A stretch of 63,327 nt of DNA, counting the filler, from an uncultured Methanosarcinales archaeon (GTDB lineage Archaea > Nanobdellota > Nanobdellia > Woesearchaeales > UBA12501), in the NCBI GenBank assembly GCA_964397315.1. It is 3 parts of 3 records of this genome, joined end to end, with 100 filler letters (N's around TTAATTAATTAA, not from the genome) between each part and the next. Parts side by side here need not be neighbours in the genome. Positions count along the whole stretch, not along the records: positions 49,104 to 63,327 come from CAYNHV010000029.1; 2 more parts are not named here. One strand, written 5' to 3'. Positions 4,154 to 56,187 of the stretch are shown here, piece after piece. The notes beneath the pieces were generated by a model. That model was not told where the DNA came from and made no database searches. It worked only from the letters and a program-made list of their open reading frames with translations. A program made the translations under genes and the position numbers. The number at the start of each line of letters is the position of its first letter. Position 1 is the first letter of the stretch.

Positions 4154-4226
4154 TAGCCCGGGGCAGATTTGAACTGCCGTCACAGCTTCCAAAGAGCTGT
4201 ATCCTTGACCACTAGACGACCGGGCT
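4154..4226 (-). tRNA. tRNA-Gln(UUG), no intron, CCA not encoded
   Basis: The reverse complement AGCCCGGTCGTCTAGTGGTCAAGGATACAGCTCTTTGGAAGCTGTGACGGCAGTTCAAATCTGCCCCGGGCTA folds as a cloverleaf with anticodon arm CAGCT-CTTTGGA-AGCTG. Confidence 0.93.
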
Positions 4227-13896: not shown

Positions 13897-13907
13897 GGAC
13901 AATTAAA

Positions 13908-14726: not shown

Positions 14727-14742
14727 TGCAGGAGGTGCAAGA

Positions 14743-16937: not shown

Positions 16938-16951
16938 CTGGAGGTGCAAGA

Positions 16952-17515: not shown

Positions 17516-17525
17516 GGTGAATAGG

Positions 17526-18221: not shown

Positions 18222-18222
18222 G

Positions 18223-19479
18223 ATGGCAGGAGAAAAACCACTTAAAGATATGTACAGGACAATGTCAGATGACCCTTTCCCTCAGAAGATGGAGATAAGC
18301 TTTGTTGGAGATGACGGGAGCAGGCAGACACTTGCTTATGAGAAAGCAACATGGGAGATTGATGGGGAGAGGAAGGGCCTGAGGTATGGTGAGAATCCGG
18401 GCCAGCCTGCTGCGATGTACAGTCTGCTCAACGGCAACCTTGTTCTTGGCGGCGTGAGCACCATAGCTGCTGGAAACCATCTTGCGTCAGACATTGAGCT
18501 CCTGCAGTCAGGAAAGCACCCCGGCAAGACAAACATAACTGACATTGACAACGCGCTGAACATACTGAGATACCTTAATGAAGAGCCATGCGCTGTCATT
18601 GTAAAACACAACAACCCCTGCGGAGTGGCTCAGGATGAATCGCTGGAAACAGCCTATCATCGCGCATATATGGCTGACAGGGTGGCTTCTTTCGGCGGAG
18701 CCATTGCTCTCAACAGGCCTGTGGACAAGCCCACAGCAGAGGCAATAGCATCCCAATATGCTGAGGTTGTCGCAGCTCCGGAGTATGAAGAGGGAAGCTT
18801 TGACATACTCGCAGGAAGAAAGAACCTCAGGATAATGAGGATTGACAACATGGAGAGGCTTGAGGATTTTGTGGGGCAGAGGTTTGCTGAGTTCAAGAGC
18901 CTTATTGACGGCAGCCAGATAGTGCAGCTATCTTATGTTCCCAATCTTGCCATTGACAGGGAGAGCCTCTTTCTGGCAGAGACAATTCATAACGAGAAGA
19001 CTTACAGGGTTGAGAGGGAGCCAACCCAGAGAGAGCTTGATGACATGATATTCGGCTGGCTTGTGGAGGCAGGAGTCACGTCCAACTCAGTCCTTTATGT
19101 CAAGGACAAGTGCACAGTGGGCATAGGCACAGGAGAGCAGGACAGGGTTGGTGTTGCAGAGATCGCAAGGGACAAGGCCTACAGGAAGCTCGCTGACAGG
19201 CTGTGCTTTGAGAGTGAGGGAGTCCCGCTCAATGAGGCTGGAATGGCAGGGGCTGTATACAAAAACCAGGCAGCAGAGATGAAAGGAGGGCTTGAAGGCT
19301 CTGTCATGGTCTCAGACGCGTTCTTTCCATTCAGGGACGGCATTGATGTCGGGCTGAGAGAAGGGGTTACTGCAGTGATACAGCCCGGAGGAAGCGAGAG
19401 GGACTTTGAGTCAATAGAGGCCTGCAATGAATACAATGCAACAATGATGTTCACAGGCCAGAGAAGCTTCAAGCACTGA
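18223..19479 (+). CDS. purH: Stand-alone AICAR transformylase (C-terminal domain of PurH)
   Basis: LRYGENPGQ, IVKHNNPCG, SFGG, SNS, GEQDRV, SDAFFPFRD, IQPGGSERD; own SD GGAGGTGA. Confidence 0.88.
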   Translation: MAGEKPLKDMYRTMSDDPFPQKMEISFVGDDGSRQTLAYEKATWEIDGERKGLRYGENPGQPAAMYSLLNGNLVLGGVSTIAAGNHLASDIELLQSGKHPGKTNITDIDNALNILRYLNEEPCAVIVKHNNPCGVAQDESLETAYHRAYMADRVASFGGAIALNRPVDKPTAEAIASQYAEVVAAPEYEEGSFDILAGRKNLRIMRIDNMERLEDFVGQRFAEFKSLIDGSQIVQLSYVPNLAIDRESLFLAETIHNEKTYRVEREPTQRELDDMIFGWLVEAGVTSNSVLYVKDKCTVGIGTGEQDRVGVAEIARDKAYRKLADRLCFESEGVPLNEAGMAGAVYKNQAAEMKGGLEGSVMVSDAFFPFRDGIDVGLREGVTAVIQPGGSERDFESIEACNEYNATMMFTGQRSFKH

Positions 19480-27589: not shown

Positions 27590-28225
27590 ATATCTCACAC
27601 TATTAATTCCTCCTGACTTTAATTTGATGAAGATAATAACTCCTCCTGATTTCTCCACCAGAACGGCGTTACTCTGTTCAAGCGCAGGCGGGATTTCCCT
27701 GCGCTCAATCCCACAAAATGCCCTTTAAGTGTTGAAGCACTGTGATTAAATCTCCTGTGTGTATTTTGGTTAATCCAGACTTAACCACCAGAACGGCATT
27801 ACTCCGTTCACGCGTAGGAAATTGAGCCTCCTCTAAATATGGTGGTTAATCCAGATTTCTCCACCGCCCTCATCACAGTTACAGATGGACAAATCCCGCC
27901 CTCCGTCCCCCTNNNNNNNNNNNNNNNNNNNNNNNNNNNNNNNNNNNNNNNNNNNNTTAATTAATTAANNNNNNNNNNNNNNNNNNNNNNNNNNNNNNNN
28001 NNNNNNNNNNNNCCCTTCAACAGCTTGAGCGCACCAATTCCACAGAGCGCTTTAAGCATATGATTGGGCGGGCTTATCTGGAGCAGGAGCAGGGAGTTGT
28101 GCTGCTGCAGAATCAGATAACCTGCTGAGTGGTTGTGCAGTAAGGGAGGGGAGTACCTGGAGTAATAATCATAAACAAGCCACTCCAAGGCGGGAATTAC
28201 TAAGAATTACAACCATAAGCGCATC
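27590..28225 (+). repeat. Copy C of the long dispersed non-coding repeat, spanning the assembly gap
   Basis: GAACGGCATTACTCCGTTCACGCGTAGGAAATTGAGCCTCCTC (27791) matches 41274 onward, with an internal duplicate at 27661. The post-gap part matches 41430-41620. Confidence 0.85.
27913..28012. other. Assembly gap with artificial TTAATTAATTAA spacer
   Basis: N-run around a spacer with stops in all six frames. Confidence 0.97.
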
Positions 28226-31714: not shown

Positions 31715-32032
31715 ATGAAACAAAAAATATCCTCATTCAGGTGCAGGCACTGCGGCTACTGCTGCACCCAGATAGTTGTGCTGAGCAGGAAGGATATTGA
31801 GAGGATAAAGAAGCTGGGATACAATGAGAGAGATTTCGCTGAAGAAGACCACCTTGGCAGGAAAAGGATTAAAATACCCAGCTACTACTGCTACTTTCTC
31901 GGGCTGAGGGACGGGAAGACCTTCTGCAGGATATATGAGGCAAGGCCTGAAACGTGCAGGAAGTACCCATTCTTTGAGGGCTACACAGCAGAATGCATGC
32001 CCCCAAAGCTGTTTGATGACGGGATAATATAG
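31715..32032 (+). CDS. YkgJ/FliB-family Cys-cluster protein
   Basis: FRCRHCGYCC...CYFL...CRIYEARPETCRKYPF. Confidence 0.9.
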   Translation: MKQKISSFRCRHCGYCCTQIVVLSRKDIERIKKLGYNERDFAEEDHLGRKRIKIPSYYCYFLGLRDGKTFCRIYEARPETCRKYPFFEGYTAECMPPKLFDDGII

Positions 32033-32324
32033 GATATATGCGATTTATGATTGCTCTGTTATGGTGGTGTTCTCCCATGGCACTGTATGCTAATGTATGT
32101 GTCTGACTGAAGGGCCAATACAAAGACTCAGAATGGGCCATAAAAGACAAAAAACAGTGAGGGGGAGTGATGGAGGGGTCTAGATCAGAGATTTGTTCAA
32201 AATGAGGGGTTTTCTGGTGCTTTTTCTGAAAAAGAAATGGTGGGGCTTGTAAGAGGGAGCGTGTTATTTCTATTGGTCACTGGACAAAAGTGTGCGTAAT
32301 ATTTATAAATGTGGGGGCTTATAT

Positions 32325-32453
32325 CTAGGAAGAAAGCTGACTAAATGATATCCTTTTTGTAACAGGAGGATTTATCAACAATATATCGAGTTCTGATTTC
32401 TTATTCAATATATCCTCAAATGGTCGTAATCTAATAATCTCTCTCCCCCTCAC
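32325..32453 (-). pseudogene. 42-aa N-terminal gene remnant, possibly of a B12-binding radical SAM protein
   Basis: GTG-started MRGREIIRLRPFEDILNKKSELDILLINPPVTKRISFSQLSS lies behind the duplicated promoter; (D)ILLINPP is a typical N-terminal motif of that family. Confidence 0.35.
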
Positions 32454-32473
32454 TTAAGCTAGCAAAGCAGATA

Positions 32474-32578
32474 ATATATATAAATATTTCTCTTTCTTAG
32501 TTACTCTTTAGTGATTATGCTCCGGAAGATTTCCGGCTCAAGAATCAGCCTTTTATCTCATCATCAACCTGCTTCTGC
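32474..32578. repeat. Left copy of ~105-bp direct repeat bounding the low-GC island
   Basis: 39-bp identity 32540-32578 = 37419-37457, plus a shared TCCGGAAGATTTCCGG palindrome and TATA region. Confidence 0.9.
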
Positions 32579-32642
32579 CTGAGGGGTCTTTTTCCGCGAA
32601 ATCCTTCTCTTTGTAACCCAGACTTTTTATCCTTTTAATATG
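32550..32642 (-). pseudogene. Internal fragment of a second YkgJ-like gene
   Basis: Translates to IKRIKSLGYKEKDFAEKDPSGRSRL, versus IERIKKLGYNERDFAEEDHLGRKRI in 31715-32032. Confidence 0.7.
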
Positions 32643-32802
32643 TCAGAAATATACCACTGGTTTATTTAACCAGTGGACAAAGTCCACAAAGGCATATCCG
32701 CAGAGGGTATATTTCTGAGCATGCTCAAAAACCACAGGTCAATAAAGAATGAGAATGAAGCTTTCGCTTCATGCCACCGGTCTCTGACCGGTGGTTTTTG
32801 AC
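32641..32802. repeat. Two-armed palindromic REP/MITE-like element
   Basis: TGTCAGAAATATACC...GGTATATTTCTGA-GCATGC-TCAAAAACCAC...GTGGTTTTTGACA with nested hairpins. Confidence 0.75.
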
Positions 32803-33059
32803 AAGAATTAAATGAAATCAAGTGTTATCTGAAGGCGTTTGATAATCCTCATACTCCAAGTTCTAAGAAGCGAAAGAAGAATAGAAACATTTAAATAGCA
32901 AGCAAACCATAATATAACCTTATGGGAGCTCCAATTCCGCCATTGGAAGTAGTATCTAATCAGTACTTTAGGGAGTTAAAGCCCTATTATGACAAGGTTC
33001 ATAGCCGCGAGCCTCTTGATGAGGCAGAATTAGATAAGATTTTTGGAATAAAGAATAAG

Positions 33060-34337
33060 GCTTCTTCTGCAATTTTGATGAAGATTTAAAAACCTCAAAT
33101 TGCCCCTAAGGGCAAAATGAGGCTCCAAAACACTAAATTTCGGTTTAGGGATTTGTATAATTTCAAAGCTTTTAAATTTTTTGATAGTTTTGTTGAAAAT
33201 GACAGCATTTTAGTTGTTCTGAGAAGGACTGGTAAGACAGGGAAATGTCCTTGTTGTGGTAAGCGTTGCAGATATATTCATAGGCGTAGGAATCGTAGAA
33301 TCAGGGATTTGGATGTTGCCAATTCTAAAGTATACATGTGCTTTTTGGAATATGATATCTCCTGTAAATGCGGTTATGGAGGGAAGGAAGAGCTTGAATT
33401 TGTTCAAGATTATTCCCGTTATACCAGGCGTTTTGAGGAGAAAGTTGTTACTTTATGCCTTTGCATGTGCATTAAAGATGTGACAAATGAAATGAGAATT
33501 GGTTGGAAGAGTGTTAAAAATATTGATAAGCGCAATGCAAGAAAATATATCATAGACTTGGAGACAGTTAATCCAAAAAGAATTGGTGTTGATGAAATAG
33601 CTTATGAGAAAGGGCATAAGTATCTGACTGTTGTAAGAGATATTGACTTGGGCAAGGTTATTTGGGTTGGCAAAGCAAGAAAAAAAGAAACTCTTGACAG
33701 GTTCTTCAGAGAGTTGGGCGTGAAGAAAAGCTGGGCTATAAAGGTTGCGGTGAGTGATATGTGGGATCCTTACATTGCCAGCATTAAGGCAAACACTGAT
33801 GCAGCAATAGTCTTTGACAAGTTCCATATTGCTAAAGTAATCACAGAAGCAGTGGATAATGTGAGAAAGAAAGAGTTTGCCAAAGCAGACAAGGAAGAAC
33901 GCAAGAGGATGAAGAAGAAAAGATTTCTGATCCTGTCAAGACAGAAGCGTCTTGATGACAAGAAAAAAGAAACACTTTTTGATTTGTTTGATATAAACAA
34001 AAATCTTTATTCTGCATACGTTCTCAAAGAACAAGCACTTGACATATTTGAAGAGACTAATGAAAAGATTGCAGTGAAAAGACTTAACAAATGGCTGAAT
34101 AATATCTCCAAAGCAGGAATAGACCAGTTCAACAAAGTATCAAACAGGATTAAGAGTTACATGTACGGCATACTCAATTATTTCCATTACAAACTTACTA
34201 ATGCGCAAAGTGAGGGATTCAATACTAAGATAAATGTAATCAAAAGAAAAGCATACGGCTTCAGAGATTTAGAGTATTTTAAGCTGAAAATACTCCAAAC
34301 ATGCGGATTAATGAATCATCAAAATGGCTGAAGAGCC
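33060..34337 (+). mobile_element. ISL3-family insertion sequence, 1278 bp
   Basis: Imperfect 22-bp terminal inverted repeats GCTTCTTCTGCAATTTTGATGA / reverse complement GGCTCTTCAGCCATTTTGATGA; 8-bp TSD AGAATAAG at 33052-33059 and 34338-34345. Confidence 0.92.
33117..34331 (+). CDS. ISL3 family transposase
   Basis: CPCCG zinc finger, IGVDEIA, SDMWDPY, FDKFHI, TNAQSEGFNTKINVIKRKAYGFR. Confidence 0.95.
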   Translation: MRLQNTKFRFRDLYNFKAFKFFDSFVENDSILVVLRRTGKTGKCPCCGKRCRYIHRRRNRRIRDLDVANSKVYMCFLEYDISCKCGYGGKEELEFVQDYSRYTRRFEEKVVTLCLCMCIKDVTNEMRIGWKSVKNIDKRNARKYIIDLETVNPKRIGVDEIAYEKGHKYLTVVRDIDLGKVIWVGKARKKETLDRFFRELGVKKSWAIKVAVSDMWDPYIASIKANTDAAIVFDKFHIAKVITEAVDNVRKKEFAKADKEERKRMKKKRFLILSRQKRLDDKKKETLFDLFDINKNLYSAYVLKEQALDIFEETNEKIAVKRLNKWLNNISKAGIDQFNKVSNRIKSYMYGILNYFHYKLTNAQSEGFNTKINVIKRKAYGFRDLEYFKLKILQTCGLMNHQNG

Positions 34338-34772
34338 AGAATAAGTTAAGTGGAATGTATCATCCAGATGCGCTTAAAAAATCTGAAATTATGAAGTACA
34401 TACATCATATATTGGGCAGAAATGGTACAGTATCAACAGAAATAGAAAATGAAATGCTGGACAATGAATTCAGGCAATTGGGTCTTGATTTAAGAGACAA
34501 ACCTCTTACTCCCAAACAAAGAGAAACTATTGAAACGCGCAGAGAAGATATCTGCAGGACATTATATCCTGAATACCATCCCCCTACTCCATGAGTTTTT
34601 TGATAAATAGAGGCACCATTGTATTTGTAATTTCTTTAACCCCAAAGTCATAATCTGACATAAAGGCCACAATTCTGTCTTTATCATGGTAGGTTCCATG
34701 CTCTCCTCTGGGCAGCTCCCCTCCACGTAAGCACATAGAATTAGATACCTTATCTCTAACATCCCTTTTAAT

Positions 34773-35376
34773 GCGAGCGTAGCGAGCATTGGGGTTTAAT
34801 TCCCCGACCTTTAGGTCGTATTTCTTAGAAAAATTTTGTTGCGGCTTCGCCGCAGAGTGTTCTGCGGGCGAAGCTGCGCAATCATAGTCCATTCAAACTA
34901 GCGTGAGCTTTGTTCGCGGAGGGCGAACAAAATGTTGAAGCATTACAGCCATAAGGTCGGCACAAATTTCTGGCACATTGAATTTGCAACAAAGTACAGA
35001 TACAAGATGCTTGGCAAATTCAAGCAGCAAAGTATAGCTGATGCCTCAATCCGTAAGGTATGTGCAAGGCATAATATAAAAATCCATCGATTATTTGTCA
35101 TGCCAGAGCATGTGCACATGCTCATAACATTGCCTCATAACATAACTGAATCAAAAGGCATGCAGCTTATCAAAGGCGGATCAGCATACCACTTCTTCAA
35201 AAACCATCAAAAAAGCAGATTGAGATTGCCTCAAGGTCACTTGTGGAGTGCAGGTGGTTGTGCAACAACCGTAGGATACAATGAATACACTACAGTAGAC
35301 AACTATATCAGGAATCAGGCAGAACACCACGCACTGGCCTGAGATACCCCAACCTTTAGGTTGGGGAGAAGGTCAT
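34773..35376 (+). mobile_element. IS200/IS605-family element (tnpA only, no tnpB)
   Basis: Subterminal hairpins CGACCTTTAGGTCG and CCCCAACCTTTAGGTTGGGG; inserted 3' of TTAAT, right end TCAT, no TSD. Boundaries are ambiguous by 1 nt. Confidence 0.85.
34932..35342 (+). CDS. tnpA: Y1 (HUH) transposase TnpA
   Basis: HIEFATKYR, MPEHVHML (HUH motif), IKGGSA, LWSAG, YIRNQ (catalytic Tyr). Confidence 0.95.
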   Translation: MLKHYSHKVGTNFWHIEFATKYRYKMLGKFKQQSIADASIRKVCARHNIKIHRLFVMPEHVHMLITLPHNITESKGMQLIKGGSAYHFFKNHQKSRLRLPQGHLWSAGGCATTVGYNEYTTVDNYIRNQAEHHALA

Positions 35377-35441
35377 ATTATATATTCTGCCCTCCTTAAA
35401 CATTATGAGATTTCTGTAGTTCAAGATCTCTGAAAAATGGA

Positions 35442-35939
35442 TTAAACTATTTCCATTGCATCAACCAATGTTTCCCCTCTCACACCTTTATTTTTATAGA
35501 ATTCAGAATCGGGAGGAGCATATATTGTATCTGGCAATGGCCTTAATCTTATAAGCTTTCTTGCATTAATCTTGACTGAATGGAAATCAGCCTTGCCTTT
35601 TGCATATTGAGCCAGCACTTCCATATATTCTTTAACAACAGACAATTCCTCTTCACTAAGCCTACTTGTAATATCAAGAGCATTTCCATCATAATCTTGT
35701 TCTTGACTTATTTTTAGTTTCTCTGCATGCTTCAATATCTTCATATAACCACCCGGATTTTCACGCAAAAACTCAACAACATAATCAAGATTCTCAGCAA
35801 AACCGGTGCCTTGGGAACTAACATAGTCTGCCAGTTCCCTTCTTTTGGCTTCCAATGCTGGATATACAGGTTTTTGCCCTTCCATTTCCCATACATCATA
35901 TAGGTTTTTAATCCATAAACCACTACCTTGCCACTGCAA
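35442..35939 (-). CDS. Hypothetical protein, paralog of 35971-36423 (start uncertain)
   Basis: Shares DY..SQ...AE.L.Y.V..LR, HA.KL, EL.VV..Y and L.P.PD...PD..F.K with its neighbour. Confidence 0.7.
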   Translation of the reverse strand: MQWQGSGLWIKNLYDVWEMEGQKPVYPALEAKRRELADYVSSQGTGFAENLDYVVEFLRENPGGYMKILKHAEKLKISQEQDYDGNALDITSRLSEEELSVVKEYMEVLAQYAKGKADFHSVKINARKLIRLRPLPDTIYAPPDSEFYKNKGVRGETLVDAMEIV

Positions 35940-35970
35940 CGATGATAGTGGGTTAAAGCAGCATATAGAT

Positions 35971-36423
35971 TCAAACTTCTTCTACCATATCAGCCAATCT
36001 TCTGCCAGGCCTGCCTTTGAAGAAATATGGGTCAGGGCGTGCCCTTTCAGGGTCAGGCATTGGTTTTAAATCTATTATGTCATCCAGAGCTTTGTCTACA
36101 TATTCAGAATCTTTTTCTCCTTTCAGATATGGGGTTATGACTTTTTTAAAATAATCTTCAACCACTGGCAGCTCTGCCCCCTCAAACCTGTATGCAATTT
36201 CTGCAACATTATATGTTCTCTGAACTTCCAATGACGGCAGTTTCATGGCATGATCTTTGAGCTCTACAAAAGGAATCTCCCCGCGCAAGTAACGGACGAT
36301 ATACCCAAGATGTTCAGCAACTTTGGGCTCTTGGGACACAATATAATCTACAAAAGACCCCATCTTATCCTCATGATTTTTGGTTTTAGGTTCCATTTTC
36401 CTATGTAATATATAGGCTTCCAT
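35971..36423 (-). CDS. Hypothetical protein, paralog of 35442-35939
   Basis: Shared motifs as above; starts 1 nt after the upstream gene ends. Confidence 0.7.
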   Translation of the reverse strand: MEAYILHRKMEPKTKNHEDKMGSFVDYIVSQEPKVAEHLGYIVRYLRGEIPFVELKDHAMKLPSLEVQRTYNVAEIAYRFEGAELPVVEDYFKKVITPYLKGEKDSEYVDKALDDIIDLKPMPDPERARPDPYFFKGRPGRRLADMVEEV

Positions 36424-36424
36424 C

Positions 36425-37330
36425 TTATTTAAACCTTTCTGTTATCTTCTCCACTATTCCCAATGGCGCAGGAGGTTGCCATAACTCCTCATTTTTGCCG
36501 AATTTGCTTGTCCAATATTCTTTAAATTTGCAGTGGATATCAAGCCATAACTTTTGCAATTTTGTTTCATAATCATTTGTAAAGCCAAAGACCCCTGGTT
36601 TCCATCTAAATTCTGGATTAACATAATACCCTAAATCCCTGTTTTTATTGTGTCTTTCTTCAAAAGGCAAAGTTCTTTCTTCAAACCATATGCGTGTGGG
36701 TGCTGTAACTTTGTCATAAAAAGATTCAATAAAGTAATCATTTAATTCATGCACTCCTTGACGTTCAACAATTCTTCTTATAAGTTTGGGATTATTAAAA
36801 AGATGGTGGGGTGTGTCTCCTTTTTCTCTATGTTCAGACCTTTCTCTATGCGTCTGAACAGCTGTGTGTAAGTCAGTTATCATCTGATAGAGGAATAACT
36901 CATCTTTTGTCCCGTTGTGCGTTTCATACCCGCATTTTCTCATCCAGTCCCTGTGGATATTTCTTTCCCATATTTCTATGGCAAGTTTCATGTATTTTAC
37001 TGTATCTTCTTCAGAGAGAGTCTCAAAAACAGGTAGTTCATAATCATATCTTATATGGCCATATCCATATAAGCAGGTTAATCCTGCCCTTAAGGGGCCG
37101 TCCTCAAAATTTTGAATTTTAAGGTCGTATAATGTGTTATTGTATTTGATTTTTATTTCTGTCTGGTTTTTTGTTTTGTTTAGAAAAGCAATCTCTGCCA
37201 TGTCATCAAGCCATAATCCAGCGTGCCTCTCAGGCAATGGGATGCCCTTTAATTCAAGTTCCCTGACAACTGACTTTCTTAACTTTTCTCCCTTGATGAT
37301 ATCATCCAACTCTATGCTGATTTTAACCAC
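36425..37330 (-). CDS. Hypothetical protein, 301 aa, low GC
   Basis: Open frame behind a TTTATATA box that lies in the duplicated segment. Confidence 0.7.
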   Translation of the reverse strand: MVKISIELDDIIKGEKLRKSVVRELELKGIPLPERHAGLWLDDMAEIAFLNKTKNQTEIKIKYNNTLYDLKIQNFEDGPLRAGLTCLYGYGHIRYDYELPVFETLSEEDTVKYMKLAIEIWERNIHRDWMRKCGYETHNGTKDELFLYQMITDLHTAVQTHRERSEHREKGDTPHHLFNNPKLIRRIVERQGVHELNDYFIESFYDKVTAPTRIWFEERTLPFEERHNKNRDLGYYVNPEFRWKPGVFGFTNDYETKLQKLWLDIHCKFKEYWTSKFGKNEELWQPPAPLGIVEKITERFK

Positions 37331-37350
37331 CCTAATACTTTGGCAATATA

Positions 37351-37457
37351 TCTAAATATATAAATCTTTCTATTTTTAGTTACTAATTAGTAGTTACATT
37401 CCGGAAGATTTCCGGACAAAGAATCAGCCTTTTATCTCATCATCAACCTGCTTCTGC
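37351..37457. repeat. Right copy of the island-bounding direct repeat
   Basis: Matches 32474-32578. Confidence 0.9.
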
Positions 37458-37769
37458 GCTTCTTCTATCTCCTTATCAAGCTGCTGCTCAAAAGACGGCT
37501 TTCTGGGAGGCTTCTTTTCCTCTTTCCCTGGCTTTTCCTTGCTCTTGGGCTCTTCCCCTGCATTCTCCTTTTTTTCAGGCTTTTCCTCTTTAGCAGGCTC
37601 AGGTTTCTTCTTACTCTTGTCATCAGAAGTTTTCTTACCTCCCTGGGCAGGCTGCTGCAAGTGCAGAGATGCCTGTTGCGTAGAGAAAGCTCCTTCTTGT
37701 GAAGGTATTTGGAGTAGTAGAAAGTCCCAAAGCGCTGTTGAGAATGCTCTCAAGCTTTCCAAACATCAT
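37424..37769 (-). pseudogene. Frameshifted twin-arginine lipoprotein gene
   Basis: ATG 37769 after GGTGG gives MMFGKL...TRRSFLYATGISALAAAC, then a stop at 37635. Deleting one base at 37645-37647 continues into GGKKTSDDK...DEIKG. Confidence 0.65.
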
Positions 37770-37921
37770 AAACCACCTTGCAAGACCTGTAAGGTATTAC
37801 TCCTATTTAAAGCTTTCGGTTGTCGTCATTAGAGAGTGGTGGTGGCTGTATCCTGAAGTACAGAAACATTTAAATATGTGCAGTGAATTATACAAATTCA
37901 AGCGAATTTGTTCAATAGAAA

Positions 37922-39208
37922 ATGGATTACAAAAGCATAATCGTCCAATGGATGGAATTCAGGATTCCAGAAACCATGCCAAGAGAGCAGACCGCAAGCC
38001 TGGAACCTGATTTTATAACAACAATAACAGGCTCAAGAAGGTCCGGCAAGACCTACTTCTGCTTCCAGCTGATGAGCCAGCTGATGAAGGAAGGCCTCCC
38101 AAAAGATAACATACTGTACATAAACTTTGAGGACAACAGGCTCATCGGAGCAGAAGCAAAGGACCTGGATGAGCTTCTGAACGCTTTCTATGAACTCTCC
38201 GAGACAGACAGGAAAAAGAAGATATATCTCTTCCTGGACGAGATACAGGTAGCGAAGAACTGGGATGCCTGGGCAAGAAGAATACATGACACAAAAAAGA
38301 ACATAAAACTGATACTCACAGGATCATCATCAAAATTATTAAGCAAGGACATCTCTACAAAACTGAGAGGAAGAACTATCAATATAGAGATATATCCGCT
38401 GAGCTTCAGGGAATTCCTGGACTGGAAGAACATCAAATACAGCAAAAAAACGCTGCCTTACAGCGAAGACAGGCTTGAAATAAAAAAGCAATTCTCCAAA
38501 TACCTCACTGAAGGAGGGTATCCCGCAATACTGACCAGCAAGAGCCAGCATGAAACAATACTCAAAAACTATTTTGAGTCCATGATATTCAAGGACATCG
38601 TGGAAAGATACAATATAAGCAACATAAAAAGGCTGAAAGTGATTGCAGGGCTGTTATTTGAATCAACAGCCAGCGAGATGTCCTACACAAAAACAACCAA
38701 CAAGCTGAAATCCATAGGATTCCCCCTCAGCAAGAACACTCTCATAGAATACATATCCTATTTTGAAGATGCATACCTCTTCTTCCAGAACATGAAATAT
38801 GAATATTCCCTCACTAAACAGATGGGTTCCATAAAAAAGATCTACTGCATAGACAACGGCCTGCTGAACGCAGTAAGCTTCAAATTCTCAGAGAACAAGG
38901 GAAAACTGCTTGAAAACCTGGCATACCTAGAATTAAAAAGAAGGAACAAGGAAGTTTACTACCACAGGAAAAACAATGAATGCGACCTCCTCATAAAAGA
39001 GAAAAACAGGATTGTTTCCGCAATCCAGGTCTGCGAAGAACTCACCGAAGAAAATGAAAAGAGAGAAACACGCGGGCTCCTTGAAGCATTATCAGCCCAC
39101 AACCTAAAAGAAGGCCTCATACTGACACTTGATCAGGAAGACACAAAGCATATTGAAGGAAAGAAAATAAGCATAATACCTGCATGGAGATGGCTTCTGG
39201 ACAGCTAA
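37922..39208 (+). CDS. AAA_14 / DUF4143 ATP-binding protein
   Basis: GSRRSGKT, YINFED, FLDEIQ, LTGSSS, GGYP, KIYCIDNG, LENL, ECD. Confidence 0.92.
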   Translation: MDYKSIIVQWMEFRIPETMPREQTASLEPDFITTITGSRRSGKTYFCFQLMSQLMKEGLPKDNILYINFEDNRLIGAEAKDLDELLNAFYELSETDRKKKIYLFLDEIQVAKNWDAWARRIHDTKKNIKLILTGSSSKLLSKDISTKLRGRTINIEIYPLSFREFLDWKNIKYSKKTLPYSEDRLEIKKQFSKYLTEGGYPAILTSKSQHETILKNYFESMIFKDIVERYNISNIKRLKVIAGLLFESTASEMSYTKTTNKLKSIGFPLSKNTLIEYISYFEDAYLFFQNMKYEYSLTKQMGSIKKIYCIDNGLLNAVSFKFSENKGKLLENLAYLELKRRNKEVYYHRKNNECDLLIKEKNRIVSAIQVCEELTEENEKRETRGLLEALSAHNLKEGLILTLDQEDTKHIEGKKISIIPAWRWLLDS

Positions 39209-48887: not shown

Positions 48888-48953
48888 GATAGGGACTCTG
48901 GTTTAATAAAGATGACAATTCCTCAGGGTATTGCCGCAGCCCTTGTCTTTTAA

Positions 48954-49156
48954 GTCAAACAAAAATATAGTTGAGCGGCTACCACCGGTGGAACACCGGA
49001 TGGNNNNNNNNNNNNNNNNNNNNNNNNNNNNNNNNNNNNNNNNNNNNTTAATTAATTAANNNNNNNNNNNNNNNNNNNNNNNNNNNNNNNNNNNNNNNNN
49101 NNNATGCCATCCGGTGTTCCACCGGTGGTAGCCGCTCAACTATATTTTTGTTTGAC
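48954..49156. repeat. Perfect 50-bp inverted repeat flanking the second assembly gap
   Basis: 48954-49003 is the exact reverse complement of 49107-49156. Confidence 0.85.
49004..49103. other. Assembly gap with artificial TTAATTAATTAA spacer
   Basis: N-run with a six-frame stop spacer. Confidence 0.97.
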
Positions 49157-49204
49157 AAAGCGCAGCTGCTTCTTGATCTGCTTATATCTGCTCACGCCAC
49201 TCTG

Positions 49205-51457
49205 TTAATGGTCATAGTCATCATTAAGAACTCTATGGATGTCCTCTGCCTTTTTCTTTCCTATCTTTTCAACGCTCTGCATCTCTTCAGGAGACGCGTT
49301 TATCACATTCCTTACAGAACCCATGCTTTTTAGCATGGGCCTTGCCAGCGTAGATCCCACCCCTGGGAGGGAGGATATTATGTATTCCTGCTGCTCTTTG
49401 AGAGTTAGATGCTTTTTTTCATTGTGCACGCTGAATCCTTTCCCTGTCTCCTCCTGTTCCCTTTTGGCAATAACAGCAAGCAGGCTGGCGGTTTCCCTGA
49501 AATCCCTTGTCTGCAGAACAGGGACTCCATAACTTACTGCCACTGTAGCGAGCATACCCCTTACTGCATTAGGGTGCACATTTCTTTGTGAGTAGATGTC
49601 TTCCTGGCCTTCAACTATAAGAACTGGCTTTTCATAATTACTCTTGAGGGCTCTCACCTGCTGAAGAAGCCTTCCGTCTACTATGGAATCCACAAAGTCA
49701 GGCACTCTCTTGTATTCCGCAGCGCACCTGCCTGACAGGACAAAATCCCCTGTCTCAAGCCTCTTTAAGCTGATGTTCACCCCCCTATCCACAAGCTCCC
49801 TCATGACTCCGCTTCCCTTCTCCCTGTCATCCGCGAAAATCCTTATGGTTTCGCTCTCCTCCTGGCCATCATCTTTTGCTGCCTTTTTCCCAAAAAAGCT
49901 GTCCAGGCGGTTCTCATTTTCCTCTCTTTTCTCTTCTATATTGTTCATCAGGAATTTCTTCTTCAGGTCCTTGAGCGTGACTTCCATCCTTTTTTCCTTG
50001 TGGAAAGCGCTCCACCTGTATCCCTCGTCTCTTGTCCCTTTTGCAAAGAGCACATACACCTTTCCCTTCTCAAGCCTTCCTGTCCTTCCCTTTCTTTGTA
50101 TGTGCCTTATGGCAGAGGGTATTGGCTCGTAGAATATTACTACATCCACTTTAGGGATGTCCAGTCCCTCCTCTGCAACTGATGTTGCCACCATAACATT
50201 GAATCCTCCTGAGGAAAACTCTTCAATAAGCTCTTTCTGCTTCTTCTGGCTCATCCCTGTTGTTCCCTTTTTGGCCTGGCCGAAGAAGGTTTTTGCCCTT
50301 ATTCCCTTAATGCTGCTGAGTTTCTCCTCTATCTTTGAGGCTGAATCCCTGAACTGAGTGAAGATGAGCAGTTTTACGCCGGCAGCATTCTCTTTTTCAG
50401 CTATCCTTTTCAGCTCCTCCAGCTTGGGGTGCTCCACGCCTGCCTCATAAAGGCTTTTTGCTTTTATGAATGCTGATTTAAAATTAGCGTCAGCAGCAAG
50501 ATTCTTTACTGCTTTGGTGGATGTTTTTACAGAGCTTTCAATGATGCCTTCCATGTACCTGTGCAGGGATGTTATGCCCTGTGTCTCCAGCAGCTCAAGC
50601 GCGTGCTGCACTTTCATTGCTTCTGCAGCAAGAGATATGGATTTCAGAATGCTGAAGTCCTTGTTGCCTTTTGAGACTTCTGAATGGAGCTCTCCCTGAA
50701 GCCGGAGCAGGTCTGTCTTCCCTATAAACCTTCTTTTTTTCTCGTTAAGGAAGCCGTGCTTGTTTATCTCTTTTATCTTTGAGTTAAATGACTCATTGAG
50801 GTATTTTTGCACAGCCCTGAAAGAATGCGGGAGGCTGACCTCAACCCAGTTTATTTTGACATCCTGTATGTAAGGCTTAACATCAGGATCCTTCTGGGAG
50901 CGTATCTCCACATCATCAATATACAGGTTTGAGCACACCTCATTGATCTTTTCAAGCTCTGATCCCGGGCTGGCAGTAAGCCCCAGTATCCGGGGGTATT
51001 TTGCTTTCTTTTTGTATTGTTTTGCAATAAAAGCGTATGAATAATCCCCCACTGCCCTGTGGGCCTCGTCAAAAACAAGCAGGGACACATCCTCAAGGGA
51101 TATTCTTCCTGAGATCATGTCATTCTCAAGCCCCTGGGGTGTTGAGAAGATGATTTTTGACCTGCTCCAGAGCTCCTGCCTTTTCTGGGGGCTTACAAAG
51201 CCTGTAAAAACAGCCATGCTTCCCTCGTCAATGCATGTGTGCTTCAGGAAAGAGCTTTTGTGCTGCTCTGCCAGCGGCCTGGTCGGAGCCAATACCAGCA
51301 CTTTTGATTTGGGAAAATGCTTCAGCCTGTGCATTGAAAGCATCAGGGCTATGCTTGTCTTTCCCATGCCTGTGGGCAGGACAACAAGGGTGTTCTCTTT
51401 TATGCAGGTGTCAAGGATGGTCTCCTGGTAAAGCCTTGGCTTAAAATTTCTGAGCAT
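49205..51457 (-). CDS. hef: Hef helicase-nuclease (DEAH helicase + ERCC4 nuclease + HhH)
   Basis: LPTGMGKT, DEAH, TASPG, ATSVAEEGLDIP, QRKGRTGR, ADDRE, GDF...EYK, LPGVG. Confidence 0.95.
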   Translation of the reverse strand: MLRNFKPRLYQETILDTCIKENTLVVLPTGMGKTSIALMLSMHRLKHFPKSKVLVLAPTRPLAEQHKSSFLKHTCIDEGSMAVFTGFVSPQKRQELWSRSKIIFSTPQGLENDMISGRISLEDVSLLVFDEAHRAVGDYSYAFIAKQYKKKAKYPRILGLTASPGSELEKINEVCSNLYIDDVEIRSQKDPDVKPYIQDVKINWVEVSLPHSFRAVQKYLNESFNSKIKEINKHGFLNEKKRRFIGKTDLLRLQGELHSEVSKGNKDFSILKSISLAAEAMKVQHALELLETQGITSLHRYMEGIIESSVKTSTKAVKNLAADANFKSAFIKAKSLYEAGVEHPKLEELKRIAEKENAAGVKLLIFTQFRDSASKIEEKLSSIKGIRAKTFFGQAKKGTTGMSQKKQKELIEEFSSGGFNVMVATSVAEEGLDIPKVDVVIFYEPIPSAIRHIQRKGRTGRLEKGKVYVLFAKGTRDEGYRWSAFHKEKRMEVTLKDLKKKFLMNNIEEKREENENRLDSFFGKKAAKDDGQEESETIRIFADDREKGSGVMRELVDRGVNISLKRLETGDFVLSGRCAAEYKRVPDFVDSIVDGRLLQQVRALKSNYEKPVLIVEGQEDIYSQRNVHPNAVRGMLATVAVSYGVPVLQTRDFRETASLLAVIAKREQEETGKGFSVHNEKKHLTLKEQQEYIISSLPGVGSTLARPMLKSMGSVRNVINASPEEMQSVEKIGKKKAEDIHRVLNDDYDH

Positions 51458-51523
51458 AAATAAAAATAAGATATTATCGTTTAAATATTTTTTCGGTGTT
51501 CATGTCCAGTGGGGAGTGGAAAT

Positions 51524-51531
51524 ATTTATAT
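51524..51531 (+). promoter_or_regulatory. TATA box for the aroF leader transcript
   Basis: TTTATATA-type box about 25-30 nt before ATG 51557. Confidence 0.55.
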
Positions 51532-51556
51532 ATCAGATGTTCTTTCCCCTCAGGTT

Positions 51557-51634
51557 ATGAAAGCGCTGGCAGGCTCAAAAAAAGGAGTTTCTGCTAGCTT
51601 GAGAACCGGATTCTCATTTTACTTTTTTTGGTAG
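51557..51634 (+). CDS. Putative leader peptide 1: MKALAGSKKGVSASLRTGFSFYFFW
   Basis: 25-codon ORF ending F-S-F-Y-F-F-W-stop, upstream of DAHP synthase. Confidence 0.6.
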   Translation: MKALAGSKKGVSASLRTGFSFYFFW

Positions 51635-51777
51635 TTGCCTTGCTTGGCTTAGCTGAGTAAGGGCAATGCATGACCCCTCTGCTTGGCTAAGTTCTAAGGT
51701 TTGGCTTGAATCCGGTATTAAACAGCACTAAAGACAGGAGACTCAAATACTATGCAAAGCATTAAGGAGGCCGGAAA

Positions 51778-51918
51778 ATGGAAAGCAAAAAAATGAAACC
51801 TGGAGCATTAAAGCAGCAGAGAGGAATTACAGCAAACGTCAGCGGTTCAAGTGGCAGTCATTCGTGTTATCGCAATCAATATTTTTTTTGGCAGTCAAAA
51901 ATCTTTGGAGGTGCCTGA
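51778..51918 (+). CDS. Putative leader peptide 2, 46 aa, containing YFFW
   Basis: GGAGG SD; MESKKMKPGALKQQRGITANVSGSSGSHSCYRNQYFFWQSKIFGGA; stop 1 nt before the aroF ATG. Confidence 0.55.
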   Translation: MESKKMKPGALKQQRGITANVSGSSGSHSCYRNQYFFWQSKIFGGA

Positions 51919-51919
51919 A

Positions 51920-53083
51920 ATGATAATAAAGATGATGGAGAAAGCAACGGAACAAGAGGCGAGAGATGTTATTAAGCAGATAAAAGAGCTGGGTTATGCA
52001 GCTAACATAAGCGGTGAAAGCAGGAGGATTATAGGGATTATAGGAAACACAGGCAGCATTGATCCTGATGTATTCACCAGGCTGGATGGTGTTGATGATG
52101 TGGAGACTATCACCGAGAAGTACAAGCTGGTGAACAGGAAGTTCCATCCTAATCCGAGGCATATTCCACTAAACGGCTCATACATAGGAGAGGGACAGCC
52201 GAAGGTAATCATAGCAGGACCCTGCTCTGTTGAGGGCCTTGATATCATGCTGGAGACAGGAGATGCAGTGAGAGATGCAGGGGCTCATGCCTTCAGGGCG
52301 GGAGCTTACAAGCCCAGGACAGCAATCATGGACTTCCAGGGTTACGGCCTTCTGGGGCTTCAGCGCCTGGACAAGGTAAGAGAAAGAACCGGCCTGCCGA
52401 TCGTGACAGAAGCCACAGGCTCCCACCATCATGTGGTTGCTGATGTTAATGGAGAGATACCAGAGGAGGTAACAGATGACATGATTGCAGTCTCCAAGGA
52501 TGACAGATCCCTGCCTTATTTCATGGCTCAGGGAAGGTACGGGAGAAGTGAGTGTTTTGAAACAGAATCATCTGTCACCCATGTCAACAGGCACGCTGAT
52601 GTCCTGCAGGTGGGAACCAGAAATGCTCAGGCGTATGGGACGCTGCAAACAATAGCGGCGACCACAAGGGAAAGTGAGAATCCCGGAAAGAGCCAGCCTG
52701 TGCTGTTGAAGAGAGGAATGTCCTCCACACTGAAGGAGATGGTAAACTGCGCTGAATATATAGCCTCCTTTGGCAATCCCAATGTGATTCTTTGCTTGAG
52801 AGGAACCCAGCCTGCAAAAGAAGGGCTTAGGAACAATCCAGACTATGATCAGATTCCTATGTTGAGAGAGATGACTAACCTTCCAATAGTTTTTGACCCC
52901 AGCCACGCTTACGGAAGGAGGGATTACGTGCCTGCCGGAGCCAAGGCAGCACTGGATCACGGGGCAGACGGGCTGTTAATAGAGGCTCATGTGAATCCTG
53001 CAAAGGCATTGACTGACGGGCGCCAGACAATAAGCCCCATGGAGCTGGAGAAGATTGTAAAAACTGCAGAGGCTTACAGGTGA
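51920..53083 (+). CDS. aroF: DAHP synthase type I-beta with N-terminal ferredoxin-like regulatory domain
   Basis: IAGPCSVE, GAYKPRT, LQVGTRN, PVLLKRG, DPSH, GLLIEAH..P..ALTD; ATG after GGAGGTG. Confidence 0.92.
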   Translation: MIIKMMEKATEQEARDVIKQIKELGYAANISGESRRIIGIIGNTGSIDPDVFTRLDGVDDVETITEKYKLVNRKFHPNPRHIPLNGSYIGEGQPKVIIAGPCSVEGLDIMLETGDAVRDAGAHAFRAGAYKPRTAIMDFQGYGLLGLQRLDKVRERTGLPIVTEATGSHHHVVADVNGEIPEEVTDDMIAVSKDDRSLPYFMAQGRYGRSECFETESSVTHVNRHADVLQVGTRNAQAYGTLQTIAATTRESENPGKSQPVLLKRGMSSTLKEMVNCAEYIASFGNPNVILCLRGTQPAKEGLRNNPDYDQIPMLREMTNLPIVFDPSHAYGRRDYVPAGAKAALDHGADGLLIEAHVNPAKALTDGRQTISPMELEKIVKTAEAYR

Positions 53084-53107: not shown

Positions 53108-53761
53108 TTACCTTGACTTTCTCACTCCAGCCATTCTGCAGTACCCTCTTATAGCGCACCTGCTGCACCAGGGGCTTACAGGAGTGCATATATTCTGCCC
53201 CCATATCACGAGAAGGTCATTGTAGATTATCCAGTGCTTTTTTGGCAGCTTCTTTCTGAGGGCGCGCTCTGTCTGCTCAGGGGTTTTTGTCCTGACATAA
53301 CCCAGCCTGTTGCTTATCCTGTGCACGTGAGTGTCAACGCATATGCCCGGCTTTCCATAGCCGAGAGTGACCACCAGGTTGGCTGTTTTCCTCCCAACCC
53401 CCTTGAGCTTAAGAAGCTCGTCAATATCATCAGGAACTCTCCCATCATATTTCTCCACCAGAACCCTTGCTGTTTCCCTGAGTCTTCTTGCTTTTGTCTT
53501 GTAAAACCCGACAGGATAGATTGCTCTCTCAATCCTCTCTTTGTCAAGATTCATCAGCTGTGAGGGGCGTTCAGCAACCTCTGTTAATCTTCTGAACGCC
53601 TGCGCTGTTGTCTTGTCTTTTGTCCTGAGGCTGAGCAGGCAGGACACCAGAACATGAAAAGGGTCTTTTCTCCAGGAGACTTCTGTGACTATGGGAACCA
53701 TGTATTCTTTCACTTCCCTCTTTAATATTCTCATTACCCTGTTAACGTTGGTGTTGTCCAT
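53108..53761 (-). CDS. nth: Endonuclease III
   Basis: LKGVGRKTAN, VDTHVHRISNRLG, C-x6-C-x2-C-x5-C. Confidence 0.95.
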   Translation of the reverse strand: MDNTNVNRVMRILKREVKEYMVPIVTEVSWRKDPFHVLVSCLLSLRTKDKTTAQAFRRLTEVAERPSQLMNLDKERIERAIYPVGFYKTKARRLRETARVLVEKYDGRVPDDIDELLKLKGVGRKTANLVVTLGYGKPGICVDTHVHRISNRLGYVRTKTPEQTERALRKKLPKKHWIIYNDLLVIWGQNICTPVSPWCSRCAIRGYCRMAGVRKSR

Positions 53762-53826
53762 GCAGCAGAGCATTCATACCCTAATTTATTAATGTTGCTG
53801 GCCTTCTGCCTTCCTGAGAGAATAAT

Positions 53827-55467: not shown

Positions 55468-56187
55468 TCACTTTTTTGCCGCATCCCATAGCATTTCAAA
55501 ATATCTTCTGTACCCTTCTGCAATGTCCTTTTCTTTTATTAATATTCCCACAGGCTCTTCTGACCACAGGATTATTGCTGCCCTGTCTCTGTATACATTG
55601 ATTGCAAGAGGGGATGAGTGACGGTCAGGCAGGTATCTTATCTCAGCAAGAGGTATTCTCCTTACATAGTCACTGTGGCGGGCTGACTCTCTAAAGATTA
55701 TCCTGACTCTTATGTTCTTTCTCTTTCTCTCCCTGTCATAATGGGAAAAGTAATACCCCATTATCTCGTTCACGTTCTCAGAGCCCCCCAGAACCAGAAC
55801 ATCATCTCCCTGTTCTATCTGGTCGTTGAATATTGACTTTAGCGCCTGCCTGCCCTTGTAAAAGAGGGTTTCCTTGTGTTCCAGGGCCGTGTTCCTCATT
55901 GCCTGCAGCTCTGGAAGTACAGAGTCAATTGCTGCCTCTTTTTCCCTTAACATGTCAGCTATCCTCCTTGGATCCTCAGCCTGAAAGTTTCTTCTGTTGT
56001 TCATTTTTATCTGGGAGACAAGCCCCTTCTCCATGAGCCTGTCAAGCGAGTCATATACCGACCTCCTGTGCAGGCCTGTCTCTTTTGTTATTGCTCCTGC
56101 AGGGGCTGAGCCTGATTTAAGAAGCATGATGTACACCCTGGCTTCTGTATGTGTCAGGCCCGCATTTTCCAGTATTTTGGTATCCAT
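55468..56187 (-). CDS. TrmB-family transcriptional regulator
   Basis: GLTHTEARVYIML...HRRSVYDSLDRLMEKGLV; C-terminus YFEMLW. Confidence 0.88.
   Translation of the reverse strand: MDTKILENAGLTHTEARVYIMLLKSGSAPAGAITKETGLHRRSVYDSLDRLMEKGLVSQIKMNNRRNFQAEDPRRIADMLREKEAAIDSVLPELQAMRNTALEHKETLFYKGRQALKSIFNDQIEQGDDVLVLGGSENVNEIMGYYFSHYDRERKRKNIRVRIIFRESARHSDYVRRIPLAEIRYLPDRHSSPLAINVYRDRAAIILWSEEPVGILIKEKDIAEGYRRYFEMLWDAAKK

Follow-up and report, generated by a model that had tools for sequence, protein, structure and literature searches.

Leader-peptide attenuation is a textbook bacterial mechanism, with the pheA leader of Escherichia coli as one familiar case, and in the translational attenuation of ermC and cat the regulated gene responds to a ribosome stalled on a leader peptide. 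Archaeal RNA polymerase terminates at U-tracts without hairpins, so that an archaeal sensor of this type would need wiring unlike the bacterial one. Here we analyze the leader of aroF, the gene for DAHP synthase, in 63,327 nucleotides (nt) of DNA from an archaeon of the Woesearchaeales (assembly GCA_964397315.1); this whole stretch is called the window below. The leader spans about 365 nt and contains two upstream open reading frames (uORFs), uORF1 and uORF2, each with a cluster of aromatic codons towards its end, as well as an RNA domain with two competing folds. We propose, at a probability of roughly 0.55, that it is a cis-acting sensor of charged aromatic tRNAs, in which the two translated uORFs and the two-state RNA control aroF. 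The pair of uORFs had been noticed in a preliminary description made from the sequence alone; that observation is confirmed here and considerably strengthened by comparison with two related loci, and the interpretation then given to it is partly supported.

The aroF leader resembles bacterial attenuators such as E. coli trp and pheA in having a short leader open reading frame (ORF) that ends in end-product codons, 5' of a biosynthetic gene, and in a series of mutually exclusive helices, the first of which overlaps with the end of this ORF and its stop codon. Unlike them, it belongs to Archaea, contains no GC hairpin followed by a U-run, and probably begins with a leaderless ORF; further, one peptide combines codons for three amino acids, a second, putatively sensing uORF abuts aroF, and no Rfam leader family matches the leader in sequence or structure. 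For the trp mechanism we follow the summary in the accessible part of PMC4007540. The same part of that source describes leaderless leader peptides of Deinococcus deserti, where a short peptide has its AUG at the very 5' end of the transcript, is enriched in the cognate amino acid, and lies upstream of amino-acid biosynthesis or tRNA synthetase genes. This bacterial precedent counts for a leaderless uORF1, with the differences that the D. deserti peptides, as described there, are bacterial, are accompanied by predicted classical terminators, and occur as single uORFs.

Two archaeal systems are also close. In Haloferax volcanii, termination-reinitiation couples adjacent ORFs and the coupling fades by 30-40 nt, according to the accessible part of PMC12548453, in which the known coupled cases link subunit genes for stoichiometry and, unlike the proposed role of the aroF leader, are not sensors. 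At aCPSF1/FttA terminators, aCPSF1 binds U-tracts, the minimum being two U4 tracts (accessible part of PMC8716108). The T7 and T8 tracts of the aroF leader are like such sites in resembling the transcription unit ends of the window, but they occur within a 5' leader, where the reading frames turn them into Phe codons, and no regulated use of U-tract sites is described in the accessible part of PMC8716108.

Our full-text search, which covered the main text of openly accessible papers, found no leader-peptide attenuator in archaea. In its accessible text, a review of transcription-translation coupling in archaea does not contain the terms "attenuation", "attenuator" or "leader peptide" (PMC8116511), and the accessible parts of two bacterial comparative papers (PMC1262725, PMC2965389) mention archaea in passing or in the references only. 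Archaeal ribosome profiling (Ribo-seq) studies report small open reading frames (sORFs) in 5' untranslated regions as possible uORFs, "reminiscent" of leader peptides (accessible parts of PMC10117724 and PMC11456600). Provisionally, we regard the aroF leader system as unpublished, and as a credible archaeal variant of leader-peptide sensing that lacks the terminator of the bacterial family.

Two reading frames upstream of aroF

The window joins three contigs artificially by linkers (N44-TTAATTAATTAA-N44, at 27913-28012 and 49004-49103), and the aroF leader lies entirely within the third contig (49104-63327; 14,224 nt). It was compared with two related loci returned by a search of genome contigs, L001 from a Candidatus Nanoarchaeia archaeon and L002 from a Nanoarchaeota archaeon, labels that are consistent with the DPANN host assumed at the outset. 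Among the 120 matches listed in a protein search with AroF, only two are members of this clade, P0002 (70% identical) and P0003 (68%); all others listed are at most 44% identical, and most of these are unnamed, the named ones having bacterial labels (Chloroflexi/Chloroflexota, Anaerolineae and related, Eisenbacteria). The aroF genes of L001 and L002 are 68-70% identical to that of the window and the spacer identities are 42-54%, so that near-clonality is excluded. The order Hef, leader, aroF, EndoIII is common to all three loci.

The aroF gene (51920..53083, + strand) encodes a protein of 387 amino acids with an N-terminal ferredoxin-like regulatory domain, as judged from Pfam and PDB matches. 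A PF00793 match (E 2e-51) bears out its identification as DAHP synthase in the preliminary description, and the match to the PF18152 regulatory domain extends from residue 1 when the protein is read from the ATG at 51920. Among PDB entries, its sequence is matched best by 1rzm, 3pg9, and 1vr6 (E about 4e-66), which we take to be the Thermotoga maritima enzyme, whose N-terminal domain presumably mediates feedback by Tyr and Phe. As DAHP synthase is the entry enzyme of the pathway making Phe, Tyr, and Trp, its position downstream of the leader counts for the sensor reading.

N-terminally extended forms of AroF were considered, the frame being open upstream (GTG at 51851 in the window; a 405-residue form, P0002, in L001; a 415-residue form in L002). 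Two features led us to reject them: residue 1 of MIIK is where the regulatory domain found by Pfam starts, and the ATG of this form has an invariant TGGAGG in front of it. An insertion of ~35 residues (window 52430-52600; residues about 170-225, in the HHHVV...RHADVLQVG region) is common to the three DPANN DAHP synthases; it is missing from the nearest other homolog, P0004, and breaks the Pfam match into two stretches.

The first uORF, uORF1 (51557..51634, + strand), has 25 codons and the stop TAG (MKALAGSKKGVSASLRTGFSFYFFW); its position and the ending FSFYFFW are those given in the preliminary description. Its aromatic tail reads TTC TCA TTT TAC TTT TTT TGG (51611-51631). ATG-started homologs are present in L001 (2601-2675; MKTLANSSTGVSASPKAGIYYFFM, tail IYYFFM) and in L002 (1266-1340; MERLADSNVGNQASSKTRFFYFYW, tail FFYFYW), so that uORF1 is kept in all three sequences, and its reading frame is preserved over a 3-nt indel. 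The stop codons TAG, TGA, and TAA share one alignment column, 2 nt 5' of an invariant GCCTT. Within the tail, the frame of the uORF has 6, 4, and 6 aromatic codons in the three sequences, the other two frames having 3, 1, 2 and 1, 2, 0; it is the aromatic-richest of the three frames in every sequence. In L002 the tail TTC TTT TAC TTT TAT TGG consists of six consecutive aromatic codons with no T run longer than 4: a T-to-A change (TTT to TAT, Tyr) breaks the T-tract, and the stretch remains aromatic. Altogether, three independent TTT/TAT differences, in uORF1 of L001, uORF1 of L002, and uORF2 of L002, retain the aromatic residue.

The preliminary description had also placed a TATA box ahead of uORF1, and the octamer TTTATATA of the leader transcript (51525..51532, + strand) is indeed identical in the window, L001, and L002. 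It lies 32 nt from the uORF1 ATG in the window and in L001 and 33 nt in L002; the intervening 24-25 nt are just 42-52% identical, and the distance is held nonetheless. The usual position of an archaeal TATA box is about -26/-27. The fixed distance therefore predicts that uORF1 is leaderless or near-leaderless, and uORF1 is probably leaderless and read from a 5' AUG.

The second uORF, uORF2 (51778..51918, + strand), has 46 codons and the stop TGA (...SHSCYRNQYFFWQSKIFGGA, the end also written ...CYRNQYFFWQSKIFGGA). Its Shine-Dalgarno (SD) sequence GGAGG (51766..51770, + strand) stands 7 nt 5' of the ATG; this element, the QYFFW motif, and the coordinates all agree with the preliminary description. 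The aromatic cluster is TAT TTT TTT TGG (51880-51891), which contains a T8 run (51882-51889), and the Tyr codons of the two uORFs are synonymous (TAC at 51620, TAT at 51880), again as first reported. As had likewise been noted, uORF2 crosses the SD of aroF, GGAGGTG (51907..51913, + strand), whose TGGAGG is invariant in the three sequences, and its TGA (51916-51918) ends 1 nt 5' of the aroF ATG at 51920. Of 51 window ORFs (non-nested, chosen from 80 of at least 120 amino acids), only 6 have a GGAGG in the 25 nt before their start; uORF2 and aroF each have one.

The homologous uORF2 of L001 (2798-2887; ...SCNNSYDSKCFFGQ, end KCFFGQ, cluster CFFG) follows GGAGG by 7 nt, and that of L002 (1956-2096; ...GCNNAHYHVQLYFWQSAKIVGGR, tail ...QLYFWQSAKIVGGR, cluster LYFW) by 6 nt; both begin with ATGGAA, and GGAGG stands 6-7 nt 5' of this homologous start in L001, in L002 uORF2b, and in an additional ORF of L002, ORF157. 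The 5' body of uORF2 is 53-54% identical and 34, 24, and 33 codons long, and in all three sequences it is open and in the same phase with the T-tract. After shuffling, the probability of such an open frame is 0.10, 0.19, and 0.12; multiplied with two 1-in-3 phase matches this gives a product of about 2.5e-4 if the terms are independent, and a less extreme value otherwise. Thus, start codons and frames are kept in all three sequences for uORF1 and for uORF2, the check on homologous leaders that the preliminary description had called for, and both uORFs carry candidate start signals throughout (uORF1 by its distance to the TATA box, uORF2 by its GGAGG). The earlier claim that leader peptides rich in end-product codons precede the pathway entry enzyme is supported by the comparison with L001 and L002.

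The distance from the uORF2 stop to the aroF ATG is +1 nt in the window, +1 nt in L002, and +22 nt in L001. These gaps are like those of the archaeal coupled ORFs and lie within the reinitiation range of H. volcanii, which counts for the sensor reading; translational coupling of uORF2 and aroF is predicted from them.

ORF157 of L002 (1467-1940) is a 157-codon ORF located 3' of the structured leader and 5' of uORF2b. Its start, an SD and ATGGAA, is homologous to the uORF2 start of L001, and its end, ...HNSYNPD, resembles the segment CNNSYDS of L001 uORF2; from this likeness of start and end, uORF2 seems to be duplicated or expanded in L002. ORF157 has no Pfam match at E up to 1, and its Atlas leads are weak (DUF6571, score 0.92, low recognition). 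In L001, an alternative 14-codon ORF (2869-2913; MFFWAMKEGWRQAK) in the third frame has its ATG directly 5' of the T7 tract and no SD was seen upstream of it; its TGA overlaps the aroF ATG as ATGA, so that this mini-ORF (MFFW) keeps F-F-W in a frame other than that of uORF2.

The shared YFFW motif is practically confined to the leader. The 9-mer TTTTTTTGG occurs twice on both strands of the 63,327 nt, each time in this leader, and the same holds for the 12-mer TAYTTTTTTTGG, which includes the preceding Tyr codon. Thus, no unrelated gene of the window has this motif upstream of it, the outcome of a frequency check proposed together with the original observation. The six-frame translation of the window contains 14 runs of at least four aromatic residues, two of them in the 462-nt spacer, where about 0.1 are expected (Poisson P about 0.005). 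Short ORFs are often open, the shuffled probability being 0.31-0.41 for the uORF1 body, and one might suppose that two T-rich stretches of an AT-rich spacer merely happen to read YFFW. This explanation is hardly credible, given that the 12-mer is restricted to these two sites in 63 kb and that both ORFs, their starts, and their phase recur in both relatives, whose aroF genes have diverged to 68-70% identity.

The only other intergenic aromatic run of the window, YFYW (32265-32276, + strand), is within a low-GC stretch at 32000-38000 (GC 0.38-0.39 vs about 0.47 elsewhere). This stretch contains an ISL3-family transposase (33117-34331) and an IS200-like Y1 transposase (34932-35342).

Competing folds of the leader RNA

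The best-conserved part of the leader, which the preliminary description did not include, is the RNA 3' of uORF1. Folding and the three-way alignment define a closed three-way domain, conformation X (51605..51716, + strand), made up of helices P1, P2, and P3. In P1, 51605-51613 (uORF1 codons T-G-F) pairs with 51708-51716; in P2, 51619-51623 pairs with 51630-51634, so that the U-tract is in the loop, with the Tyr codon paired to the Trp and stop codons; in P3, a long hairpin, 51637-51663 is paired with 51675-51705. The segment 51600-51725 has a minimum free energy (MFE) of -44 kcal/mol with z -4.0, and none of 200 shuffles is as stable; the homologous domains have z -4.3 in L001 and -3.4 in L002. 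The full 381-nt leader is no more stable than shuffles (z +0.40), and only this domain stands out. On the three-way alignment, 94.4% of 143 cells are paired in X and three pairs have changed on both sides, one of them a P1 pair that goes from G-C to A-U in L002; of the 21 pairs in the main helix of P3, 9 vary on one side only. The 83 nt after the uORF1 stop are 72-79% identical, equal to or above the aroF coding sequence (67-79%). The RNAalifold consensus also has a hairpin, P0 (51565..51598, + strand), in the non-aromatic 5' half of uORF1, with two helices of 11 pairs in total, two pairs having changes on both sides.

The second fold, conformation Y (51634..51667, + strand), is a local hairpin, S1:S2, whose 5' end coincides with the final base of the stop codon of uORF1. 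By taking up the 5' arm of P3, this hairpin excludes P3. Y appears in the MFE structure of all three full-length leaders and has 91% of 45 cells paired in the alignment; the ensemble energies with X or Y enforced differ by 2.6-5.3 kcal/mol. The leader thus has mutually exclusive helices that begin at the end of the leader ORF, and X and Y are each compatible with all three sequences. With the end of uORF1 in a stable domain and an exclusive alternative starting at its stop codon, the layout is that of an attenuator, in the classical order of regulatory codons, stop codon, and segments S1, S2, and S3, where S1:S2 and S2:S3 (P3) exclude each other.

A covariance model of the X domain matches only its three training sequences in 76,353 nt, at 113-126 bits, apart from a reverse-strand self-match of L001 at 25 bits; the fold is strand-specific by the same measure. 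No second copy of the leader RNA was thus found in these 76 kb. Among all 4227 Rfam models, the only gathering-level match in the window is a tRNA at 4154-4226, and nothing relevant, T-box included, was found at E up to 10 in 51400-52000 or at E up to 1 in L001 and L002. Weak matches to snoR15, MESTIT1_1, RAGATH-30, and mir-27 (E 0.58-5.3) are far below their gathering scores and were rejected. The idea of a T-box was also dropped, as no model matches and the conserved UUC in the 3' arm of P3 is base-paired and not in a specifier loop. Pairing of the U7 and U8 tracts with the A7 runs present in both window uORFs (51577-51583, 51787-51793) was considered and set aside, the runs being unconserved in L001 and L002; they are two of the nine A runs of at least 7 in the window, each near the 5' end of its uORF.

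The stability and conservation of this domain raise the possibility that the leader works as RNA only: a structured cis-regulatory element that binds a protein, a ligand, or tRNA would be combined with two U-tract premature terminators, and the uORFs would be incidental or, if translated, would not sense the supply of codons. We consider this explanation possible, at odds well below even. It agrees with the RNA domain being the best-conserved (72-79% identity) and strongly stable part of the leader, and P2 pairing would by itself account for the stop-codon column. It also agrees with the distribution of T-tracts. The + strand of the window has nine T runs of at least 7, T6-T7 tracts come after transcription unit ends, and T7 tracts lie 20, 25, and 11 nt 3' of the gene stops at 8702, 19479, and 59981, which suggests that they behave as U-tract terminators in this organism. 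The leader tracts are U7 and U8 in the window, U6 and U7 in L001, and U4+U4 and U5 in L002; the uORF1 tail of L002, though broken, still has two U4 tracts, and two U4 tracts suffice for aCPSF1 according to the accessible part of PMC8716108. The over-use of TTT relative to the preferred TTC of the genome points in the same direction. On the other hand, a purely structural RNA leaves unexplained why an ATG is held at a fixed distance from the TATA box, why GGAGG, ATG, and an open, in-phase uORF2 persist over a diverged body of 24-34 codons, and why the T-run of L002 uORF1 is interrupted solely in an aromatic-compatible codon phase; nor does any Rfam family, T-box included, match the leader or its homologs within the E limits given above.

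The conserved RNA also bears on the idea that the TATA box, uORF1, and T7 form a separate unit, encoding a 25-amino-acid micropeptide or a small RNA, with aroF expressed from elsewhere. In its favor, uORF1 has a T7 tract and stop at its end, like the T7-terminated genes of the window, and the accessible parts of PMC10117724 and PMC11456600 report sORFs as common in archaeal 5' regions by Ribo-seq. Such a unit is nevertheless improbable: the segment 51635-51716 is more conserved than uORF1 and pairs back into it via P1 with a compensatory change, so that a read-through RNA must exist. Reading of the three-way alignment showed no conserved TATA-like box between 51717 and 51777, and aroF and uORF2 have strong SDs, as internal cistrons do.

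Proposed mechanism and its output

We propose the following sequence of events. Transcription would start ~25-30 nt 3' of the TATA box, and uORF1 would be read from the 5'-terminal AUG. Its first 18 codons would make no demand on aromatic tRNAs, and the last 5-7 codons, nearly all for Phe, Tyr, and Trp, would. At good supply, the ribosome would reach the stop codon and cover S1, leaving S2 to pair with S3 in the closed domain X. At poor supply, it would halt on the aromatic codons 5' of S1 and keep the 5' strand of P1 occupied; S1:S2 (Y), a fast local hairpin, would then form, and S3 and the 3' strand of P1 would be left free. The state, X or Y, would be handed to uORF2, with its own SD, its second aromatic cluster, and its end at the aroF start. 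A ribosome stalled on the uORF2 cluster would hold the aroF SD and AUG open, as in translational attenuation of the ermC type, and unstalled ribosomes would give basal aroF expression by termination-reinitiation. The sequences show the anatomy of the leader, its conservation, the two competing folds, and the upkeep of both reading frames; that the uORFs are translated, that ribosomes stall on them, which state is "on", and how X or Y is relayed to uORF2 and aroF are steps that we infer.

Thermodynamic models of the output are at best suggestive. A mask on the uORF2 cluster raises the predicted openness of the aroF SD-AUG region from 0.33 to 0.52-0.80 in the window and from 0.42 to 0.72-0.90 in L002, and in each of the three sequences X leaves the uORF2 SD a little more open than Y does. 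The leader is like ermC and cat in that the end of uORF2 covers the SD of the gene to be regulated and that a modelled stall is predicted to open the aroF SD-AUG in two of the three sequences. Unlike those systems, the stall signal here would be the supply of tRNA and not a drug or the nascent peptide; further, unlike in ermC, the consensus fold at the aroF SD is weak, RNAalifold giving only -3.8 kcal/mol and no strong conserved sequestering hairpin. Induction of erm requires stalling in the uORF, as stated in the accessible part of PMC5499644.

A number of observations weigh against the sensor. The preliminary description had supposed that all three aromatic tRNAs are sensed, and this part of it is not supported in that form: the Trp codons are gone from both L001 uORFs (TGG to ATG, W to M, in uORF1; TGG to GGG, W to G, in uORF2), and uORF2 of L001 retains FF only. 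Across the three sequences, Phe alone is invariant in both uORFs, and Tyr is invariant in uORF1 only. An attenuator in the bacterial sense, also suggested there, is likewise unsupported, since no GC hairpin with a U-tract lies between either uORF and aroF; a scan of 51300-52100 for bacterial promoters and terminators gave nothing useful on the + strand and no hairpin-plus-U terminator there, and P3 is followed by GGUUUGG, AUGG, or GUUCUGG and not by a U-tract. The Phe codons of the window clusters are TTT in five cases and TTC in one, compared with 438 TTC and 299 TTT in the 51 ORFs, an excess that would fit selection for U-runs as such. Differences between the window and L001 in uORF1 number 6, 8, and 9 at codon positions 1, 2, and 3 (counted by eye); there being no third-position excess, the case for uORF1 translation is made by position and phase only. 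An unconserved uORF1 peptide is expected of a leader peptide, yet it gives no positive support for translation. Moreover, the uORF1 stop column also lies in helix P2, which requires just U-purine-purine, and as three of the four such triplets are stops, the conserved stop is weak evidence.

The structural and modelling results add to these points. In 500 shuffles, 29 reach the paired fraction of X and 13 its covariation score, and with three sequences from one lineage such statistics are weak. Ribosome masks of 30 nt on uORF1 (placed with starts 1 nt off in L001 and L002, a negligible shift at this length) gave no consistent change in the openness of the uORF2 SD, enforcing X or Y shifts that openness by just 0.04-0.13, and the uORF2 mask is without effect on aroF in L001 (0.51 to 0.51-0.52). 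Finally, reinitiation coupling alone would lower aroF translation during stalling, so that the response could have either sign.

One further version of the mechanism, which we regard as unlikely, would do away with the terminator hairpin altogether. The Phe codons themselves would form the U-tract terminator and the aCPSF1/FttA signal, the position of the ribosome on or close behind the two successive UUU-rich clusters would decide whether the polymerase and the message reach aroF, and X/Y would relay the first decision. With the usual spacing by which the polymerase leads the ribosome, the polymerase has passed the uORF1 T7 before the ribosome meets the aromatic codons, and T7 therefore cannot be the site regulated by stalling in uORF1; the next U-tract 3' of P3 is the T8 inside uORF2. 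Our preferred reading of the output is a two-stage, mainly translational relay, in which stalling would finally open the aroF ribosome-binding site beyond a basal level set by termination-reinitiation; premature termination at U-tracts would be an extra layer or an alternative.

Promoter region and gene neighborhood

The segment from the Hef ATG to the TATA box is 73-85% identical, compared with 42-52% for the spacer 3' of the TATA box. The left edge of this shared promoter region is formed by the TTTAAATA box of the divergent Hef gene (51480..51487, - strand), in a block, GTTTAAATA, that is invariant in all three sequences of the alignment; that the box is a promoter element of Hef is inferred from its position only. 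Directly 5' of the TATA box of the leader lies a conserved block, TGTCCAGTGG..AGTG.AAA (51502..51524, + strand; L001 2546-2568, L002 1210-1232), which is nearly invariant in the alignment and is a candidate B recognition element and/or transcription-factor site. It sits between two divergent TATA-like boxes and may serve aroF, Hef, or both. A gene for a TrmB-family regulator is found on the same contig as aroF (55468-56187, - strand).

The aroF gene is monocistronic, located between the divergent gene for the Hef helicase-nuclease (49205-51457, - strand, ATG at 51457; Pfam ERCC4, DEAD, and Helicase_C) and a convergent EndoIII-like gene (53108-53773, - strand, by Pfam scan). No other aro, trp, or phe genes were found among the 59 window and locus ORFs scanned with Pfam (22 from the window and 37 from the loci). 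The linkers between contigs are six-frame-stop sequences, and gene neighborhood across the join points is meaningless; the ~60 nt before the second linker (48947-49003) are the reverse complement of those after it (49104-49160), as expected of assembly-graph ends. Elsewhere in the window, a purine biosynthesis cluster (10783-19479) encodes FGAM synthase domains, GATase, GARS, a formyltransferase, AIR carboxylase, and AICARFT/IMPCHase, the last split over two ORFs; it represents a greater biosynthetic capacity than is usual in DPANN genomes.

As a compact conserved leader, the region upstream of aroF offers a concrete test case for the coupling of translation, RNA folding, and termination in Archaea. 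If terminator-free attenuation at the Phe codons were true, it would give Archaea a first leader peptide system that senses amino acids, and would put archaeal transcription-translation coupling to direct regulatory use. If the sensor as we propose it is real, this DPANN lineage would regulate entry into the aromatic pathway at the RNA level, besides the regulatory domain of the enzyme itself.

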